A stretch of DNA of 49,213 bases from Clostridiales bacterium (lineage in GTDB: Bacteria > Bacillota > Dehalobacteriia > UBA4068): positions 1 to 49,213 of the forward strand of contig WRHF01000001.1 of the NCBI GenBank assembly GCA_009783415.1, given 5' to 3'. Within the stretch, counting starts at the first letter, position 1. Every line of letters begins with the position of its first letter. The position numbers and the translations under genes are program-made. The notes under the pieces are model-generated. The model saw only the letters and a program-made list of their open reading frames with translations, did not search any database and was not told where the DNA came from. Below, one piece after another: positions 1 to 48,187 of the stretch.

Positions 1-515
1 GTTTCGAAAAAAACAAAAACCCCCGGACCGGTGACCATGCCCCCGGAAATACCCCCCCGCCGCTTCTCCCCGCCGGAAAGAGCAAAGGGCTGACGCTGAA
101 TAAAGGCGTGCGGTTCCAGGCCCACCATGATCAGAGCAGCCGTTACCAAGCCCGGCAGATCCATCTGGGCAGCCCCGAAATTTTTGGCGCCGAAAGCCAC
201 GTCCTCAAAAACCGTTTCCCCAAAAAGCTGCTGCTCCGGGTATTGAAAGACCATTCCAACCTGGCGAAAGGTCCCTTTTTTAGAGAGCCGCACCCCACCG
301 ATATCCATAATACCCTCATCCTGGTAAATTATCCCACTGATGATTTGAGCCAAGGTGCTTTTGCCGCTGCCGCTATGCCCAATCAAGGCCACCATCTCGC
401 CCTGATCGATCACAAGATTGATATCCACCAAAGCAGGCCGAGCGCCTTTTTGGTAGGTGAAACTAACGTTTGTTAATTTTATCTGCCCCGGAATTCCGAT
501 TTCATTTTCTACCAT
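1..515 (-). CDS. ecfA2: ECF transporter ATP-binding subunit, N-terminal part (gene continues beyond window start)
   Basis: Own translation of the minus strand from ATG 515-513 gives MVENEIGIPGQIKLTNVSFTYQKG... It has Walker A GHSGSGKST, Q-loop MVFQYPEQQLF and signature LSGGEKRR. It is open to base 1, so it is absent from the ORF track. It follows ecfA1 as in rplQ-ecfA-ecfA'-ecfT clusters. Confidence 0.85.
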   Translation of the reverse strand, partial: MVENEIGIPGQIKLTNVSFTYQKGARPALVDINLVIDQGEMVALIGHSGSGKSTLAQIISGIIYQDEGIMDIGGVRLSKKGTFRQVGMVFQYPEQQLFGETVFEDVAFGAKNFGAAQMDLPGLVTAALIMVGLEPHAFIQRQPFALSGGEKRRGGISGGMVTGPGVFVFFE

Positions 516-7463: not shown

Positions 7464-7901
7464 TTATATCACCTCTACTTTACCGCCGGCTGCGGTGATT
7501 TCCTCTGCGGCCTTCTTGGAAGCCGGGCATTGCACTGTCAATTGTTTGGTCAGGGTCCCGTTGGCTAAAACTTTGACCCCGTCTTTAGCAGAACGGATAA
7601 TACCTGCCTGCACCAAGGAATTGGCATCCACAACAGAGCCATCTTCAAAGTAGTTTAAGGCAGCCAGATCCACCTTGACGATCTCTTTTCGAAAAATATT
7701 GGTAAAACCCCGCTTAGGCATGCGGCGGGAAAGAGGCATCTGGCCCCCTTCAAAGCCAGGGCGCACACCCCCGCCGGAACGGGACTTTTGGCCCTTATGC
7801 CCCCGGGCGGAAGTTTTACCCTGACCGGAACCGGTGCCTCTGCCAACCCGGGCAGCTTTAGGCCGCGAGCCGGGAGCAGGGGAAAGTTCACTAAGATTCA
7901 T
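7464..7901 (-). CDS. rplO: 50S ribosomal protein L15
   Basis: ORF 7464-7910. ATG 7901 is preferred, giving [31 protein letters not shown]. Confidence 0.95.
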
Positions 7902-7922
7902 GGTATACACATCCTTTCTTTC

Positions 7923-8045
7923 AATTAGGAATTAGGAATTAGGAATTAGGAGTTATTGTAGTTTTTGCTGCGCAAAAACAATTAATAAAATACTTTGCGG
8001 AGCAAAGTTACATTAATTCCTCATTCCTCATTCCTCATTCCTAAT
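7923..8045. repeat. heptamer-arm hairpin element, full copy
   Basis: 5' arm (AATTAGG)x4 at 7923-7950. Core hairpins GTTTTTGC-tgc-GCAAAAAC at 7961-7979 and CTTTGC-gga-GCAAAG at 7993-8007. 3' arm AATTCCTC ATTCCTC ATTCCTC ATTCCTAATT at 8015-8045. Confidence 0.9.
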
Positions 8046-8219
8046 TTGTTCAACAGTGAGCAGGTGAGCGATAGTCCGCACTTTACCCAGGATGTCCGGC
8101 GTGTCTTCCTGCACTACTGAGGAATGGAGCTTGCGCAAACCCAAGGATTCGGCGGTTCTGCGTTGAGAGGCCTCATAGCCGATCGGGCTTTTTGTGAGGG
8201 TGATTTTTATTTTCGCCAT
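8028..8219 (-). CDS. rpmD: 50S ribosomal protein L30
   Basis: ATG 8219 inside ORF 8028-8285 gives [28 protein letters not shown], 63 aa. The last codons (IRNEE) and the stop lie in a repeat arm. Confidence 0.94.
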
Positions 8220-8232
8220 TTGTTCTCCCTCC

Positions 8233-8739
8233 TTAACCCAAGATTTCCTGAGGGGTTTTGCCGCGCAAGCGGGAAACCTCCTCAACGGTTTTCATGGATT
8301 TCAAACCGGCCAGGGTCGCCTTCACCATATTAACGGCATTGTTGGAGCCCAAAGATTTTGTGAGAATGTTCCGGACGCCGCAACACTCCAAAACCGCCCG
8401 CACCGGGCCGCCCGCAATCACTCCCGTACCTTCGGAAGCAGGCTTGAGCATTACTCTGCCGGCGCCAAAACGGCCAATAGCCTCGTGGGGAATGGTGCCG
8501 TTTAAAATATTGACCTTGTCCATATTCTTTTTGGCATCTTCCACACCTTTACGGATGGCTTCCGGAACTTCCCCGGCTTTACCCATACCGGCGCCTACAT
8601 TACCGTTGCCGTCCCCAACCACAACCAAAGCGCTGAAGCTGAAACGGCGGCCGCCTTTAACAACCTTGGCAACCCGGTTGATATAGACTACTTTCTCCTG
8701 TAACTCTGTTGCATTGGCTTCTTCTTTGATGATAGCCAT
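8233..8739 (-). CDS. rpsE: 30S ribosomal protein S5
   Basis: 168-aa ORF containing [30 protein letters not shown]. Confidence 0.97.
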
Positions 8740-8752
8740 TACTTAACCTCCT

Positions 8753-42390: not shown

Positions 42391-43917
42391 TTAAGATTTT
42401 AGATTGAGCCAAAAAGCGGGACGAACACCACCACCAGAGAAACTGACACTATCACCAATATCATGGACGCCGCCGTTGGGGCTGACATGGGCAGCATTGT
42501 CAGGACTGCAGCCAGGGGAACGCAGCCACCACCACACCGCTTTCCCTTCCAGACGGGCAACACGGGCTTTGTCATACGGAAAGTATTGTTTGACTTCATT
42601 AATGCTAAGCAGAAAAAGATTGTCCTTTGTGTCAATGCTGCCCCTTGTTCTCCACATTTCATTGTCGGGGTTTTTGTTATCCCAAGTCAAAACCCGGCTG
42701 CGTTCTTTATCATCGAAGATCTGCTCCAAAAGCTGGGGAAGCAATTCTTTCTTGAGGGAGCACTTCGCCCATGTCACACTCTCTAGTTTTTTATTGTACG
42801 GAGCCGTCATCAGGCAGTCCTTCGTTATCAGCAACGCCCTGTCCGGTTGCACATCCAGGATATGCCATTCTAAAAGTTTGTTCTTCCATCGGCCCATGGT
42901 ATATATCTCATTTCTAACGAGCGGTTTTTCATCAGACCGTGTTACTTCGGCGGACTTTTTCGCCTGGGTGGGAGAGGATTTTCGGTAGGCGTGCGGAAAC
43001 TCCGGCGCAATAGATTCAACCTCCTTGACCTGGCCTGTGATATCAGCATATATGTACTCCAGGATGTCCTCTACATAGTGATATTCGCCATTAGGATACC
43101 AGATGCAGTGCATTTGCAGCCGATCAGCTATGAATGCCCTGCGTTCCTCAAAAGCTTCTTCCCCGGCTTCACCATCCATCGGCAAAATAGCGTAGTGTCC
43201 GCCTGTACTCAATCCAGTCAGTAAATCCACTGTGCGATCCTCCTTGAGACCGCAGCCGATAAACAGCAGATTGTTTCCGCTAAGAATACTATGAAGCCGT
43301 TTGATATGCTCCGAGTCTTCTTGATATAAATCGTTGTATGAATCTTTGGTCATCACCACTTCATCCGGCGCAGATACGCAGCCATGAATTTTAATCAGGT
43401 AGTGCGAACTGCCCCTTTGCACGCGTAAAGCTTGCCAAGGGGTCAGGTGACGGAGAACCAGTTTTTCCTCAAAGGAGTGCTGCTCCATCAGGAAGGCCCG
43501 TTCAAGTACTTTATCAAAGTTCGTGGTAATAACGAGGGAATTTTTAAATAGCCTGGGAAGATATCGTACAGACATTTTTTTCAGGGACTCATCCCTGATA
43601 AAAGAATCTTTAAACATTGCGACCAATCGATCATAAAAGATCGTGTTACATAGCACATCGTGGATTTTCTGGGCGGCAGCCTCGAAATCACCGCAATTAA
43701 TAAGACTTTCCACTTCATCGGCTTCGCTCTCTCGCCCGTTGAAATGCCCTTTCATCATTTTCCGCAAAGCCACACCCCAAGAGCTGTAAATATCAATAGA
43801 CAATCCCGCGCCTACGAAAGGGATTATGCGATTGCGTCTGATAAGAGGGATAAGTTGATCTTCAAGTATACTGCGGTTTTCAAAACAGTCGAATTTTGGA
43901 TCATCCAAATCAAGCAT
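42391..43917 (-). CDS. SIR2-like (SIR2_2) NADase domain fused to a DUF6273-like C-terminal domain; candidate defence protein
   Basis: ORF 42391-43977. ATG 43917 is preferred (GGAGG 6 nt upstream). Motifs IPFVGAGLS, ITTNFDKVLE, IKIHGC and LLFIGCGLKEDRTVDLL. C-terminal motifs WWWLRSPG...GGGVRPAFWLNL. Confidence 0.75.
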   Translation of the reverse strand: MLDLDDPKFDCFENRSILEDQLIPLIRRNRIIPFVGAGLSIDIYSSWGVALRKMMKGHFNGRESEADEVESLINCGDFEAAAQKIHDVLCNTIFYDRLVAMFKDSFIRDESLKKMSVRYLPRLFKNSLVITTNFDKVLERAFLMEQHSFEEKLVLRHLTPWQALRVQRGSSHYLIKIHGCVSAPDEVVMTKDSYNDLYQEDSEHIKRLHSILSGNNLLFIGCGLKEDRTVDLLTGLSTGGHYAILPMDGEAGEEAFEERRAFIADRLQMHCIWYPNGEYHYVEDILEYIYADITGQVKEVESIAPEFPHAYRKSSPTQAKKSAEVTRSDEKPLVRNEIYTMGRWKNKLLEWHILDVQPDRALLITKDCLMTAPYNKKLESVTWAKCSLKKELLPQLLEQIFDDKERSRVLTWDNKNPDNEMWRTRGSIDTKDNLFLLSINEVKQYFPYDKARVARLEGKAVWWWLRSPGCSPDNAAHVSPNGGVHDIGDSVSFSGGGVRPAFWLNLKS

Positions 43918-43975
43918 GTTCATCCTCCAAACAAGCAGATTTGTTCTAGCAACAGCACTTGCCAATGACGTAAAC

Positions 43976-44005
43976 ATTGTACCACAGGGTGAGCTTCGCC
44001 CGCAA
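43976..44005 (-). promoter_or_regulatory. candidate promoter of the SIR2-like gene (extended -10)
   Basis: TTGCGG (44005-44000), 18 nt, TGgTACAAT (-10 at 43981-43976). Confidence 0.45.
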
Positions 44006-44578: not shown

Positions 44579-45682
44579 CTATATTTTTTTCAAGATGATT
44601 TCAGTAATGTACTGTGCCGCCCGACCGTCCCCATAGGGATTAACAGCCTGGGCCATGCTTTGATAAACTTTATCGTCATCCAGCAGCAGGCCAACACCTT
44701 CACGTACCCGCCGGTAATCTGTTCCTATCAGTCGGGCTGTACCTGCGGCTATGGCCTCCGGCCGTTCTGTTACTTCACGTAATACCAAAACCGGTTTGCC
44801 CAAGGCCGGGGCTTCTTCCTGAAGGCCGCCGCTATCGGTCAGTACCAAATGGCAGCTTTTCATAACCTGACAAAAGGGCAGATAATCCAAAGGTTGGCAA
44901 AGATGGACTTGGGACAGGGTACTAAAAGCCTCTTGGGCAGCTTGCCGGACCAGGGGATTTTTGTGAACAGGGAAAATCACTTCCACATCGCTGTGTTCCC
45001 GCACCGTATCCGCCACAGCAGCAAATATCTCCTCCATAGGCCGGCCCCAATTCTCCCGGCGGTGGCAAGTCAGCAGAATAACCCGCTTGGCCCAATCCAG
45101 CCGATCCAGGCCCAGACCGGCCAAAGAGCATTCCTGTTCTACCGTTTGCAGCAGTGCATCGATCACTGTATTGCCTGTCAAGAAAATTTTCTCTGCCGGA
45201 ATATTTTCCGCCAGCAAATTATCCCGGGCGGCGGCGGTCGGGGCAAAATGAAAGTCAGCCAAAGATCCCACCAGGCGGCGGTTTATTTCCTCCGGAAAAG
45301 GAGCGTATTTATCGGCAGTGCGCAAGCCGGCCTCGACATGGCCGCAAGGAACCTGCTGATAGAAAGCAGCCAAAGCCCCGGAGAGGGTGGTAGTAGTATC
45401 ACCATGGACAAGCAACAGATCCGGCTTTTCCTCTGCTATGATTTGGCCCAAGCCGCGCAAAGCTAAGCTGGTAATATTTTCCAGAGTTTGCCCCGAATGC
45501 ATAATATTCAAGTCATAATCGGGAGTAATTTGGAAAAGCTGCAGCACCTGATCAAGCATCTCCCGGTGCTGGGCAGTGACAGCAACTTTGGACTCAATTT
45601 GAGGCTGCCGGGAGAGGCATCGTACCAGCGGCGCCATTTTGATAGCCTCAGGACGGGTGCCGAAGGCGGAGAGGACTTTCAT
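44579..45682 (-). CDS. wecB: UDP-N-acetylglucosamine 2-epimerase (non-hydrolysing)
   Basis: ORF 44579-45739. ATG 45682 gives MKVLSAFGTRPEAIKMAPLV...HVEAGLRT... Confidence 0.92.
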   Translation of the reverse strand: MKVLSAFGTRPEAIKMAPLVRCLSRQPQIESKVAVTAQHREMLDQVLQLFQITPDYDLNIMHSGQTLENITSLALRGLGQIIAEEKPDLLLVHGDTTTTLSGALAAFYQQVPCGHVEAGLRTADKYAPFPEEINRRLVGSLADFHFAPTAAARDNLLAENIPAEKIFLTGNTVIDALLQTVEQECSLAGLGLDRLDWAKRVILLTCHRRENWGRPMEEIFAAVADTVREHSDVEVIFPVHKNPLVRQAAQEAFSTLSQVHLCQPLDYLPFCQVMKSCHLVLTDSGGLQEEAPALGKPVLVLREVTERPEAIAAGTARLIGTDYRRVREGVGLLLDDDKVYQSMAQAVNPYGDGRAAQYITEIILKKI

Positions 45683-45765
45683 AGTATTTATTAGTTCCTT
45701 TCTTGGGTTGGAGTTTGTTTGCTGGGGATTAGAAAGCAAGTAACAAGTAACAGGGCTGTTTTGGA

Positions 45766-46218
45766 TTATTTGCCCTTTTTCAGCTCGATATCTTTAATGT
45801 GTTCTTCAAAATATTGCATTGTAGAATATTGACAAAGCAACTTATTCCTGTAAATATGTAGCGCTGTTTTCGCTGCTTTATATTCCGAAATGTGCTTGAT
45901 AAGTTTTTGCTTAATTATATATTCCTTACCTCGCAAAGAATCAAATTCATTCTGACGAATAAAAGGTTTCTTAGTATTATCAATATATTTCTCATCTGCA
46001 ATAACTACCGCCTTGGAAAAATCTAAGCCACACCTATTATTCTTGTCCGTCCATAATACATGTTCCTTATGATTAATGTCAGATCTTAAGGGAATAGCAA
46101 ACTGCACATCGTTTATTTTGGTGTAAACTAGCGCATAAGGGCGCATAGATTTTTGCTCTATTTCCGTGCATTCTTTATATTTGTCATAAAATAGCTCATT
46201 TAGAAACAGGAACTTCAT
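45766..46218 (-). CDS. type III toxin-antitoxin toxin, ToxN/AbiQ-like endoribonuclease
   Basis: ORF 45766-46233. ATG 46218 is preferred (GGAGG 8 nt upstream). MKFLFLNELFYDKY...RPYALVYTKINDVQFAIPLRSDINHKEH resembles the ToxN/AbiQ N-terminal pattern. It is preceded by a repeat array and hairpin. Very AT-rich. Confidence 0.65.
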   Translation of the reverse strand: MKFLFLNELFYDKYKECTEIEQKSMRPYALVYTKINDVQFAIPLRSDINHKEHVLWTDKNNRCGLDFSKAVVIADEKYIDNTKKPFIRQNEFDSLRGKEYIIKQKLIKHISEYKAAKTALHIYRNKLLCQYSTMQYFEEHIKDIELKKGK

Positions 46219-46239
46219 GCAATATGCCTCCATAAATGA

Positions 46240-46264
46240 CTATAGCCCTATAATAGGGCTATAG
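46240..46264 (-). terminator. perfect hairpin between repeat array and toxin (attenuator-like, as in toxIN loci)
   Basis: CTATAGCCCTA-tta-TAGGGCTATAG, an 11-bp stem followed by TCATTTAT. There is no clean U-tract, so it may only attenuate transcription. Confidence 0.45.
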
Positions 46265-46356
46265 TCTTCTCAGTGAACTTTTTTTTGTTTACCCTGCTCA
46301 CGTTCTATGAGCAGATCTTCTCAGTGAACTTTTTTTATACTCACGTTCTATGAGTA
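46265..46356 (-). ncRNA. candidate type III antitoxin RNA (ToxI/CptI-like), two tandem repeats
   Basis: Transcript sense: unit 1 (46356-46314) is TACTCATAGAACGTGAGTAT-A7-GTTCACTGAGAAGATC. Unit 2 (46313-46265) is TGCTCATAGAACGTGAGCAGGGTAAAC-A8-GTTCACTGAGAAGA. The internal 6-bp hairpin shows a compensatory change between units. The locus lies between a consensus promoter and the toxin gene. Confidence 0.6.
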
Positions 46357-46391
46357 TTTATAGAATAAGATGAATCTTACTCTTTGTTATT

Positions 46392-46420
46392 ATTATACGC
46401 AGCAAATCGAAATATGTCAA
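46392..46420 (-). promoter_or_regulatory. sigma-A type promoter of the repeat-array/toxin locus
   Basis: TTGACA (46420-46415), 17 nt, TATAAT (46397-46392): a perfect consensus. Confidence 0.7.
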
Positions 46421-46585
46421 GAATTCGAAGGAAAATTCCAGGACAATCGCAATGAAAATATTAGTCAATTGCAAGTAATAATATACTATAAATAGCATAG
46501 CCTGTCAAGTATTTTATCAGGGATAGCTGTGAAAACTATTCCCCCAAAAACCTGCAACCGCTGTGTGCTTTTAACTAAAATAATG

Positions 46586-46641
46586 GTTTCGCAAAGCGAA
46601 ACTTCATTACCTGTAACCTGTAACCTATTACTTATTACCTG
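46586..46641. repeat. heptamer-arm element, half copy (core + 3' arm)
   Basis: Core hairpin GTTTCGC-aaa-GCGAAAC at 46586-46602. Arm TTACCTG TAACCTG TAACCTA TTACTTA TTACCTG at 46607-46641, abutting the comM stop. It uses the same 7-mer type as 514-562. Confidence 0.8.
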
Positions 46642-46645
46642 CCTT

Positions 46646-48187
46646 CTACACCATTTCATTCCGATCCAAACTCCGATACTGAATAGCCTCAGCCAAATGA
46701 GTCAAGCTGATAATCTCCGCTCCGTCCAGGTCGGCTATGGTGCGGGATAACTTTAAAATGCGGTCGTGGGCGCGGGCGCTCATTTGGAGGCGTTGATAGG
46801 CTCCTTCCAGTAGTTTTTGGGCCTGCGGTTCCAGGATGCAGCAGTTTTCCAGTTCGCGGCGGCTCATCAGGGCATTGCACCAGGTGGGGCCATCGCTAAA
46901 GCGCTTTTGCTGGATCCGGCGGGCAGCCACCACCCTTTCGCGGATCCGGGCGGAGCTTTCGCCTTTGGGGGAAAGGCTTAGATCCTCATAGGCCAGGCGG
47001 GGTACTTCGATATGAATATCGATCCGGTCCCACAAGGGGCCGGAGATTTTGTGCAAATAGCGTTTTACCATCTGGGGCGAGCAGGTACAACGGCGGCTTT
47101 TATCCCCGTAATAACCGCAGGGACAGGGATTGAGGGCTGCCGTCAGTTGGAATTGGGCGGGATAAGTCAAGCGGGCATAGACCCTGGAGATAGTCACCAG
47201 ACGATCTTCCAGGGGCTGACGCAGGCTCTCCAAGACTTCCTTGGAAAATTCTGGAAATTCATCGAGGAAAAGAACTCCCTGGCTGGCTAGACTTACCTCT
47301 CCCGGCCGGGGGTTGGAACCGCCCCCGATAATACTGGCGGCGGAAGCCCCGTGATGAGGCGCCCTAAAAGGCCTTCTGGTCATCAAGGGCTGTTTTTTGG
47401 GCAAAAGCCCGCTGACACTGTAGACCTTGGTCAGCTCCAGGCTTTCCTCCAGGGTCAAAGGAGGCAAAATGGAAGGCAAGCGCCGGGCCAGCATGGTTTT
47501 GCCGCTGCCGGGAGGTCCCAGCATCAGAATATTATGTCCGCCGGCGGCGGCAATTTCCAGAGCCCTTTTAACCCCTTCCTGGCCCCGGACATCGGAAAAA
47601 TCTATCTTGTCCTCATCATGAGGGGCTGAAAAGAGGGCATCTATATCCACAACTACCGGAGACGGAGCCGTTCCCCGGCGCAAAATATCCGCCAGCTGAT
47701 TAAGGTTTGCGATCCCGTGACAAGCCAAACCTCTGGCAATAGCCGCTTCCCCGCTATTATCCTCCGGCAGGAAAAAATCCACCAAACCGTCCACACGGCC
47801 CAGGCATTGAGCCATAGCCAGGCTGCCCGGCACCGTCCGCAAGAGACCTTCCAAGGAGAGCTCCCCCACCATGACAGCACCGCTCAAAAGATCATTGAAG
47901 GGCACCTGACCGGTGGCAGCCAAAATCCCCATGGCAATGGGCAGATCGAAAAGAGGGCCCTCCTTGCGGATATCCGCCGGAGCCAGATTGACGGTTATCC
48001 GGGAAAGCGGAAATTCAAAACCCGAATTACGCAAAGCAGCCCGGACCCGCTCCTTACTTTCCTTGACAGAGGCGTCGGGCAAACCCACAATATCAAAAGC
48101 AGGCAACCCGCCGCTAACATCCACTTCTACTTTAACCAGATAGGCATCGATTCCCATTAAAGCACAGCTGTTAATTATAGCTAGCAT
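46646..48187 (-). CDS. comM: YifB/ComM family Mg-chelatase-like AAA+ ATPase
   Basis: 513-aa ORF containing MLAIINSCALMGIDAYLVKVEVD, Walker A GPPGSGKT and a Cys cluster CPCGYYGD...CTC. Confidence 0.93.
   Translation of the reverse strand: MLAIINSCALMGIDAYLVKVEVDVSGGLPAFDIVGLPDASVKESKERVRAALRNSGFEFPLSRITVNLAPADIRKEGPLFDLPIAMGILAATGQVPFNDLLSGAVMVGELSLEGLLRTVPGSLAMAQCLGRVDGLVDFFLPEDNSGEAAIARGLACHGIANLNQLADILRRGTAPSPVVVDIDALFSAPHDEDKIDFSDVRGQEGVKRALEIAAAGGHNILMLGPPGSGKTMLARRLPSILPPLTLEESLELTKVYSVSGLLPKKQPLMTRRPFRAPHHGASAASIIGGGSNPRPGEVSLASQGVLFLDEFPEFSKEVLESLRQPLEDRLVTISRVYARLTYPAQFQLTAALNPCPCGYYGDKSRRCTCSPQMVKRYLHKISGPLWDRIDIHIEVPRLAYEDLSLSPKGESSARIRERVVAARRIQQKRFSDGPTWCNALMSRRELENCCILEPQAQKLLEGAYQRLQMSARAHDRILKLSRTIADLDGAEIISLTHLAEAIQYRSLDRNEMV

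Follow-up and report, generated by a model that had tools for sequence, protein, structure and literature searches.

The 49,213-nucleotide (nt) stretch analysed here (the window; contig WRHF01000001.1 of the Clostridiales bacterium assembly GCA_009783415.1) carries between positions 46420 and 45766 what is very likely an intact chromosomal TenpIN type III toxin-antitoxin module that would operate by the standard type III scheme. All elements of the locus lie on the minus strand. An earlier reading of the letters alone (the sequence-only reading) had proposed a type III locus from the order promoter, repeats, hairpin and toxin gene, and this proposal is borne out by an equivalog match of the protein to the TenpIN toxin family (NF047358), by two repeat units that both belong to the Rfam family 6A, and by the hairpin between repeats and gene. 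The anatomy of the locus matches published tenpIN loci and is ordinary for the family. What is added here is the link between 6A and TenpI, the covariation evidence for the TenpI pseudoknot and its phase, and the separate conservation of the two unequal units. The sequence elements, the protein family, the covarying RNA structure and the strict linkage of RNA and toxin are direct observations.

Type III families are defined by the sequence of their toxins, and membership in TenpIN was judged by homology to TenpN. The tenpN gene (45766..46218, stop codon included) encodes a protein of 150 amino acids (aa) with an isoelectric point of 9.2, and its ATG stands 8 nt downstream of the ribosome-binding site GGAGG (46227..46231), just as the sequence-only reading had described it for a basic 150-aa product. 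An upstream ATG at 46233 was ruled out as start, because the homologues share the same MKF beginning that is encoded from ATG 46218. The assignment to the TenpN family of predicted endoribonucleases comes from NCBIfam, from the alignment and from the predicted fold. The NCBIfam equivalog NF047358 (“type III toxin-antitoxin system TenpIN family toxin”) matches the protein with an E-value of 1.7e-40 and 138.5 bits at a cutoff of 90, covering positions 1-140 of the 141 model positions, and the only other NCBIfam match at E<=1 is a spurious one of 12.7 bits. Pfam at E<=1 gives no ToxN-type match and as sole result a sub-threshold LARA_dom, and among the PHROGs the toxin matches an unnamed family only. 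A database search returned 139 relatives, mostly from Clostridia metagenomes, several of which have been named “protein AbiQ” by the Joint Genome Institute (JGI), and an exhaustive profile search at E<=1e-3 yielded 719 representatives at 50% identity. In an alignment of 33 TenpN sequences, 28 columns are invariant, including PLRS (43-46), H50, W56, C63-G64, D66-F67, K69, R88 and E91 and comprising the motif CG.DFSKA, and the window toxin keeps all 28. When plasmids were searched by tblastn, proteins of about 30% identity were found on Yersinia pseudotuberculosis p153kb and on Granulicella pACIX905, both of which the founding description of the family lists as tenpIN hosts (PMC3401426).

The resemblance to ToxN/AbiQ endoribonucleases that had been suggested from the N-terminus therefore has to be divided: it stands for the fold and for a weak profile match, but the sequence family is that of TenpN. 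The AlphaFold2 model, built with the 33-sequence alignment, reached a predicted local distance difference test score (pLDDT) of 93.4, and the best Foldseek match of this predicted structure in the PDB is ToxN of Bacillus thuringiensis (4ATO_A; probability 1.00, TM-scores 0.59/0.53, E 5.7e-3), a type III toxin, followed by MazF, Kid and CcdB. At the sequence level the TenpN profile matches ToxN 4ATO weakly (E 0.032), with PLRS aligned to the PLTS of ToxN. CptN (4RMO) gave no sequence match at E<=10, neither with the single sequence nor with the profile, and was not among the best 50 Foldseek matches. By its sequence, the window protein is thus a TenpN and not a ToxN or AbiQ, although the modelled fold is shared, and TenpN is predicted to be an endoribonuclease of the ToxN/Kid-like fold.

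In case of the RNA, the two tandem repeats seen in the sequence-only reading are confirmed: the composite CTCATAGAACGTGAG-N(3-12)-AAAAAAAGTTCACTGAGAAGA has just two occurrences (46316-46354 and 46265-46311), and 100 dinucleotide shuffles yield none. Both copies belong to the Rfam family RF02925 (6A RNA). The copy next to the toxin gene, TenpI unit 2 (46265..46318; 51 nt plus AGA of the spacer), is matched end to end at 46268-46318 with 65.7 bits (E 1e-12; gathering score 41.2). The upstream copy, TenpI unit 1 (46319..46361; a short form of 43 nt), is matched with 33.9 bits (E 2.5e-4) and so misses the gathering score, as its loop 3 lacks 8 nt. The two matches are contiguous, in phase and back to back. 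Our own covariance model, R1, recognises both units, with 70.2 bits (E 5e-19) for unit 2 and 43.6 bits (E 1.3e-10) for unit 1. The array thus consists of units of 43 and 51 nt and a 3-nt partial third unit, which is within the range of the TenpIN family. Tandem Repeats Finder at score 30 did not report it; such misses are typical of tenpI repeats according to the 2025 survey of the family (PMC12283969).

The association of 6A with TenpN is not peculiar to the window. We scanned with Rfam 58 loci that encode TenpN relatives, taken from contigs of one genome per species, in which the best TenpN identity to the window protein is 61%. In about 50 of these 58 loci, RF02925 lies on the strand of the toxin gene and ends about 50-110 nt upstream of the TenpN start. 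Loci without this arrangement are either cut at a contig end (L016, L047), or were found through partial protein matches (L056, L058), or are odd (L014, L049, L054). 6A RNA likewise stands before TenpN genes on plasmids of Clostridium estertheticum, on a replicon of Fusobacterium vincentii and in the window's two closest relatives, and with a weaker match in Leptotrichia. Because 6A stands directly upstream of TenpN in about 50 of 58 loci, we identify it, on sequence grounds, as the TenpI antitoxin unit of the Firmicute/Fusobacteria branch of the family. Rfam annotates the hairpin alone and files the motif as an sRNA (small RNA) gene; here, the hairpin loop pairs downstream as a pseudoknot, and the motif is tied to TenpN. 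An orphan Rfam family hereby gains a function, so that Rfam scans can find type III loci where repeat finders fail. The main text of the survey of 224 candidate RNAs that introduced 6A (PMC5737381) does not discuss it, and neither the 2025 tenpIN survey nor a full-text literature search, whose scope ended short of the 6A supplement of PMC5737381, contained a 6A-TenpN link; we therefore cannot be sure that the link is unreported.

The arrays of Yersinia p153kb (L064) and Granulicella pACIX905 (L065) gave no 6A match at E<=0.1. By eye, these arrays, which lie about 120-260 nt upstream of the toxin, also show a hairpin, an A-tract and then a segment complementary to the loop, and the complements are specific to the unit (GGAUG:CAUCC versus GAACA:UGUUC). 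A broader TenpI model is required to detect the proteobacterial and acidobacterial arrays. Among the odd loci, L014 has an atypical array at about 2730-2920 (listed together with L030, 2752-3000), where 6A-like hairpins and a second repeated segment take turns. In L049 (1332-2003), the TenpN homologue at 1368-1829 has no 6A unit upstream and two directly downstream on the same strand (1900-2003); no second toxin gene follows this pair, and the apparent order is reversed, first toxin and then antitoxin.

Could the 6A repeats be something else than a protein-binding antitoxin, namely a tandem cis-regulatory leader of the riboswitch type or an independent sRNA? Rfam states no partner for its sRNA, and tandem units followed by a terminator hairpin resemble an expression platform. 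Nevertheless we regard this as highly improbable, since the gene downstream of 6A is consistently TenpN, since the repeats of the founding TenpIN system neutralise the toxin in trans (PMC3401426), since a pair downstream of the toxin gene, as in L049, is impossible for a 5' leader, and since a pseudoknot with an A-rich loop mirrors the structure of the CptI antitoxin (PMC4627078).

The fold of the antitoxin units could be examined by covariation. A covariance model was built from 61 units with the hairpin as the sole structure, and 76 matches, 67 of them distinct, were aligned to it. The pseudoknot pairs, between the loop bases G14-C17 and four bases 3' of the A-tract, were absent from the model and were counted afterwards. 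With its default filters the model missed most of the short unit 1 copies of the Lachnospiraceae group, which were parsed by script instead. Hairpin and pseudoknot cells are in standard pairs to 97.5%, as compared to 34-42% when the partners are slid by 1-3 columns. All eight stem-1 pairs show changes on both sides among these units, and one such compensatory difference, already recognised in the sequence-only reading, distinguishes the two units of the window (ACUCA/UGAGU versus GCUCA/UGAGC). For stem 2, 99.6% of the cells are paired, and compensatory changes occur at three of the four pairs: column pair 15:46 is AU in 53, GC in 10 and GU in 3 cases, 16:45 is GC in 46, AU in 15 and GU in 6, and 17:43 is CG in 63, UA in 2 and UG in 2. 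Within single loci, unit 1 can have GAAC:GUUC where unit 2 has GAGC:GCUC, GGAC:GUCC or similar, and the rarer complements GAAU:AUUC, GAGU:ACUC and GGGC:GCCC are also matched on both sides. The length of loop 3 rises with that of stem 1 (Spearman 0.53, p 6e-7, 79 distinct cores), as it should if loop 3 extends alongside stem 1.

Covariation thus supports that the TenpI unit folds as an H-type pseudoknot in which the A-tract is the third loop. In unit 1, the predicted stem 1 is formed by 46357-46351 and 46343-46337, and GAAC (46348-46345) in its loop pairs as stem 2 with GUUC (46329-46326) beyond the A7 loop 3 (46336-46330), after which the tail ACUGAGA follows. In unit 2, whose pseudoknot pairs are backed by covariation, 46315-46308 pairs with 46300-46293, and GAAC (46305-46302) with GUUC (46278-46275) across loop 3 (GGUAAACAAAAAAAA, 46292-46279), and the tail is ACUGAGAAGA (46274-46265). 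A permuted phase, in which the unit would extend from A-tract to A-tract and the loop would pair with the upstream GUUC, is disfavoured: in the informative loci, Watson-Crick complementarity is higher with the loop's own downstream segment, and the phase therefore is hairpin, A-rich loop, stem 2. The 2025 survey had predicted an H-type pseudoknot for tenpI from single sequences (PMC12283969). Until now predicted in this way only, the TenpI pseudoknot herewith gains covariation support, and the fixed phase, with the partner of the hairpin loop located 3' of the A-tract, narrows the possible positions of processing sites. The A-tracts had been proposed as cleavage sites of the toxin in the sequence-only reading; as covariation places them in loop 3, they are structural elements and probably not cleaved. 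The single-stranded spacer of 10-11 nt, ACUGAGAAGA(U), comes after stem 2 in either unit, is kept across loci and after unit 2 abuts the terminator stem; by analogy, it may be the better candidate for a processing site.

The small number and the unequal length of the two units, which had appeared unusual in the sequence-only reading, turn out to be characteristic of the family. Published tenpIN arrays have on average 2.2 copies (1.9-3.0) of 50.9 nt (39-57) (PMC3401426), and non-identical tenpI repeats with up to 35% variation have been described (PMC12283969). Among the 50 loci for which two units could be parsed, loop 3 is shorter in unit 1 in 39, the loop-to-loop period is 42-43 nt in 30 (43 nt in the window), and the two units of a locus have a median identity of 0.63. 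The closest relative of a unit 1 is the unit 1 of another locus in 45 of 50 cases, and that of a unit 2 is another unit 2 in 47 of 50. The unit 1 of the window has an identity of 0.94 to the closest unit 1s of other loci and of 0.71 to its own unit 2. To judge from these sequences, the short unit 1 and the long unit 2 form two lineages that have been conserved separately in about 50 loci, and as both lineages keep their stems by compensatory change, it can be argued that both units are functional.

Whether both non-identical repeats are functional is a question that has been put for tenpI in the 2025 survey (PMC12283969), and the separate conservation of the units bears on it. In principle, unit 2 might be the only working antitoxin, with unit 1 being a degenerate remnant or just the 5' processing site for unit 2. 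The sub-threshold Rfam score of unit 1 (33.9 versus 41.2) and the 8 nt absent from its loop 3 would agree with this, as would the fact that the gathering score is reached in most loci by no unit other than the one next to the toxin gene. We consider it unlikely, since the stems of unit 1 are kept across loci by compensatory changes (again GAAU:AUUC, GAGU:ACUC and GGGC:GCCC), and since the predominance of unit 1 among the nearest relatives of unit 1 (45/50) points to purifying selection on a distinct short form and not to decay. If both units indeed function as antitoxins, TenpN may even form a hetero-RNA ring with a single copy of each, such as two toxins together with unit 1 and unit 2, an idea that we put forward very tentatively and that is more probably wrong than right. 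If true, both distinct antitoxin RNAs would be required, in a type III complex with non-equivalent RNAs that differs from the homomeric rings of ToxIN and CptIN, and this would explain why the family tolerates and preserves non-identical repeats.

Further elements lie around the array. The sigma-70-type promoter (46392..46420), with TTGACA at 46420-46415, a 17-nt spacer and TATAAT at 46397-46392, agrees with the consensus in 12 of 12 positions, as the sequence-only reading had seen, and 40 of 50 related loci have a TTGnnn-16..18-TAnnnT site upstream of unit 1. The leader that separates the presumed start site from unit 1 is predicted to form a 5' hairpin of 9 base pairs (bp) (AGAGUAAGA/UCUUAUUCU; 46362..46383), whether 46386-46210 is folded as a whole or the leader by itself (-8.2 kcal/mol). 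The leaders of related loci are either very short or, as in the window, 26-57 nt long with a 5' hairpin of unrelated sequence, and this hairpin possibly protects the 5' end. Unit 2 is followed by a 13-bp stem-loop, GACUAUAGCCCUA-UUA-UAGGGCUAUAGUC, and then by UCAUUUAU (46238..46266), which presumably constitutes a partial intrinsic terminator. The hairpin had been noticed before as an 11-bp stem at 46264-46240; its presence is confirmed, but the stem has 13 bp and extends from 46266 to 46238. Its folding free energy is -21.5 kcal/mol (z -6.0), none of 200 shuffles is as stable, and a hairpin starts within 25 nt after unit 2 in all 50 two-unit loci.

Two minor features lie in or near this region. 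A near-consensus second promoter site, TTGACA-17-TATATT (11 of 12; 46480-46508, minus strand), lies 88 nt upstream of the main promoter in the same AT-rich patch; it may act as a tandem promoter, or may have arisen by chance in DNA of this composition. An open reading frame (ORF) of 46 aa (MLFIVYYYLQ...; 46358-46498, minus strand) overlaps the promoter region and lies in AT-rich sequence; it is probably spurious, and its conservation is uninformative because it is identical in the sister contig L059 that is described below.

Mechanistically, we envisage the following. The strong promoter would produce a short transcript that carries the 5' hairpin and the two non-identical TenpI units. Each unit would fold into an H-type pseudoknot with a stem 1 of 7-8 bp and a stem 2 formed by the loop GAAC and the downstream GUUC, and the A-rich stretch as loop 3 would run along the minor groove of stem 1. 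The 13-bp hairpin after unit 2 would stop most transcripts, so that antitoxin RNA would outnumber the toxin mRNA, as only the read-through product encodes TenpN. By analogy with ToxIN and CptIN, TenpN would cut the precursor in the single-stranded spacers ACUGAGAAGA(U) and would then remain with the pseudoknots that it has released, as a closed and inactive ring of protein and RNA. Once transcription halts or the RNA is lost, for instance upon phage infection, free TenpN would cleave cellular and phage RNA, and this cleavage would halt growth and abort the infection. Transcription, termination, processing site, complex formation, toxicity and defence phenotype are all inferred in this scheme. 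To our knowledge, TenpIN is the only type III family for which no complex has been solved, and well-defined Firmicute examples are useful targets for this reason. The precedent is the TenpIN system of Photorhabdus luminescens, whose TenpN is toxic in Escherichia coli and neutralised by its own repeats, and which aborts coliphage infection (PMC3401426).

How does the locus compare with the known type III systems? With TenpIN itself (founder P. luminescens TT01, Blower et al. 2012, PMC3401426; survey by Nadig et al. 2025, PMC12283969), it has in common the homologous toxin and the succession of promoter, about two repeats of about 50 nt, hairpin and toxin gene, as well as repeats that are not identical, keep a conserved A-stretch and are predicted to fold as H-type pseudoknots (PMC3401426, PMC12283969). 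Firmicutes are the main tenpIN hosts (PMC12283969). To the members from Proteobacteria and Acidobacteria, the window TenpN has an identity of only about 30%, and the locus belongs to a Clostridia/Negativicutes/Fusobacteria branch that has the 6A RNA, whereas the Yersinia and Granulicella arrays did not match 6A at the threshold given above. CptIN of Eubacterium rectale (4RMO, PMC4627078) is likewise a Firmicute chromosomal type III system with about two repeats of about 45 nt, and CptI also forms an H-type pseudoknot with a long A-rich loop in the minor groove of stem 1 and with a pyrimidine “kink” (PMC4627078); unit 2 of the window has AAAC-A8. This A-rich loop of CptI is required for antitoxicity (PMC4627078). 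In contrast to the window locus, CptIN has a toxin of another sequence family (at E<=1, no NCBIfam family but TenpIN was convincing for the window protein) and near-identical repeats, and the heterotetramer stoichiometry is that of CptIN. With ToxIN/AbiQ of Pectobacterium, B. thuringiensis and Lactococcus, the locus shares the overall logic, a toxin fold that is closest to ToxN of B. thuringiensis (4ATO), and the aligned PL(T/R)S; different are the lack of a Pfam ToxN-type match of the window toxin, the shorter and more numerous ToxI repeats (mean 38 nt and 2.8 copies, up to 5.6; PMC3401426), and the heterohexameric complex (PMC4627078).

The locus is embedded among housekeeping genes. Its G+C content (GC) is 32.8%, as compared to 53-56% in the flanking genes and 49% in the window, in line with the AT-richness seen in the sequence-only reading, and the low-GC patch from about 45740 to 46640 (0.9 kb) fills the gap between the gene of a ComM/YifB-type Mg-chelatase-like ATPase (46646-48187) and the UDP-GlcNAc 2-epimerase gene wecB (44579-45682). 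Both genes are on the minus strand, as are a neighbouring dCMP deaminase gene and the gene of a 528-aa SIR2_2-DUF6273 protein (42391-43977) that is located 1.8 kb from tenpIN. The N-terminal SIR2_2 half of this protein, which precedes the C-terminal DUF6273, matches defence-type models (LmuA 5e-18, ThsA, Dsr1), so that, as far as such matches tell, it is possibly a stand-alone SIR2 defence gene. No mobile-element genes flank the locus. At the upstream edge of the low-GC insert (46586-46626), right after the comM stop codon, the heptamer GGTTACA is repeated 2.6 times (46609-46626), followed by a terminator-like hairpin (46602-46586, minus strand).

The same gene order is found in the sister contig L059, which is from a “Clostridiales bacterium” metagenome-assembled genome (JGI 3300042604; 7500-8750) and also keeps the SIR2_2-DUF6273 gene. 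Its promoter, leader, both units, hairpin and first 19 tenpN codons are contained in a stretch of 550 nt of which 546 agree with the window, and no difference lies between promoter and codon 19. The tenpN gene of L059 has an in-frame deletion of 165 nt, between similar short sequences, that removes codons 20-74 and therewith the whole conserved core including PLRS, H50, W56 and CG.DFSKA, and this tenpN is separated from the epimerase gene by about 360 nt of unrelated sequence, which contain an ORF of 51 aa. As the module occupies the same site in L059, it must have been acquired before the two strains split and is fixed at this position. The horizontal acquisition that had been deduced from the low GC content is a reasonable inference, although the locus has one and the same fixed chromosomal position in both genomes. 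The window has the intact allele, and to lose the toxin while keeping the antitoxin is the expected course for a toxin-antitoxin module; it is compatible with toxicity and no proof thereof. One may ask whether the window copy is itself silent or decaying, given that the toxin is inactivated in its closest relative and that the window terminator is atypical. However, the reading frame is complete and retains every invariant residue, the promoter fits the consensus perfectly, the ribosome-binding site is strong, and both RNA units have perfect stems, which makes an inactive locus quite improbable.

Several points speak against a functional TenpIN module or limit what can be expected of it. The toxin has no PADLOC match and no significant sequence match in the PDB, neither as single sequence nor as profile. 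A terminator scan did not list the 13-bp hairpin, and the U-tract UCAUUUAU is weak by reading of the sequence. Cleavage site and complex stoichiometry have to be taken from analogy only, since no TenpIN member has a known offset of its processed TenpI (PMC3401426). A literature search found no expression, processing, toxicity or phage data for any Firmicute TenpIN. Moreover, CptIN stabilised plasmids without conferring phage resistance in E. coli (PMC3401426, PMC4627078), and a defence function of the window locus is therefore not guaranteed.

This latter point leads to another view of the function, albeit not of the mechanism, namely that for this chromosomal patch the module is mainly an addiction or stabilisation element, or a selfish remnant, and not a phage defence system. 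Apart from the plasmid stabilisation by CptIN, the fixation of a 0.9-kb low-GC insert between housekeeping genes in two genomes would be compatible with it, and the loss of the toxin core in L059, where the RNA is kept, is what one would expect of a dispensable toxin. On the other hand, TenpIN of P. luminescens lowers the efficiency of plating of coliphages to values of down to 10^-9 (PMC3401426), a SIR2-type candidate defence gene is located nearby, and with no mobile-element genes at its flanks there is nothing obvious that the locus could stabilise. On balance, we therefore hold a role mainly in stabilisation to be somewhat unlikely and favour the phage defence that the type III scheme implies.

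A few further RNA motifs came up in the Rfam scans. In L006 (973-1740), two FuFi-1 RNAs lie upstream of tenpIN, and in L007 (2523-2572), a DUF3800-XI RNA lies downstream of it; both are Rfam motifs of unknown function. The only other Rfam match in the window is an S10-Clostridia ribosomal protein leader (RF03136; 17749-17823, minus strand), with 40.4 bits versus a gathering score of 35.1, and it fits a Clostridia-type genome.

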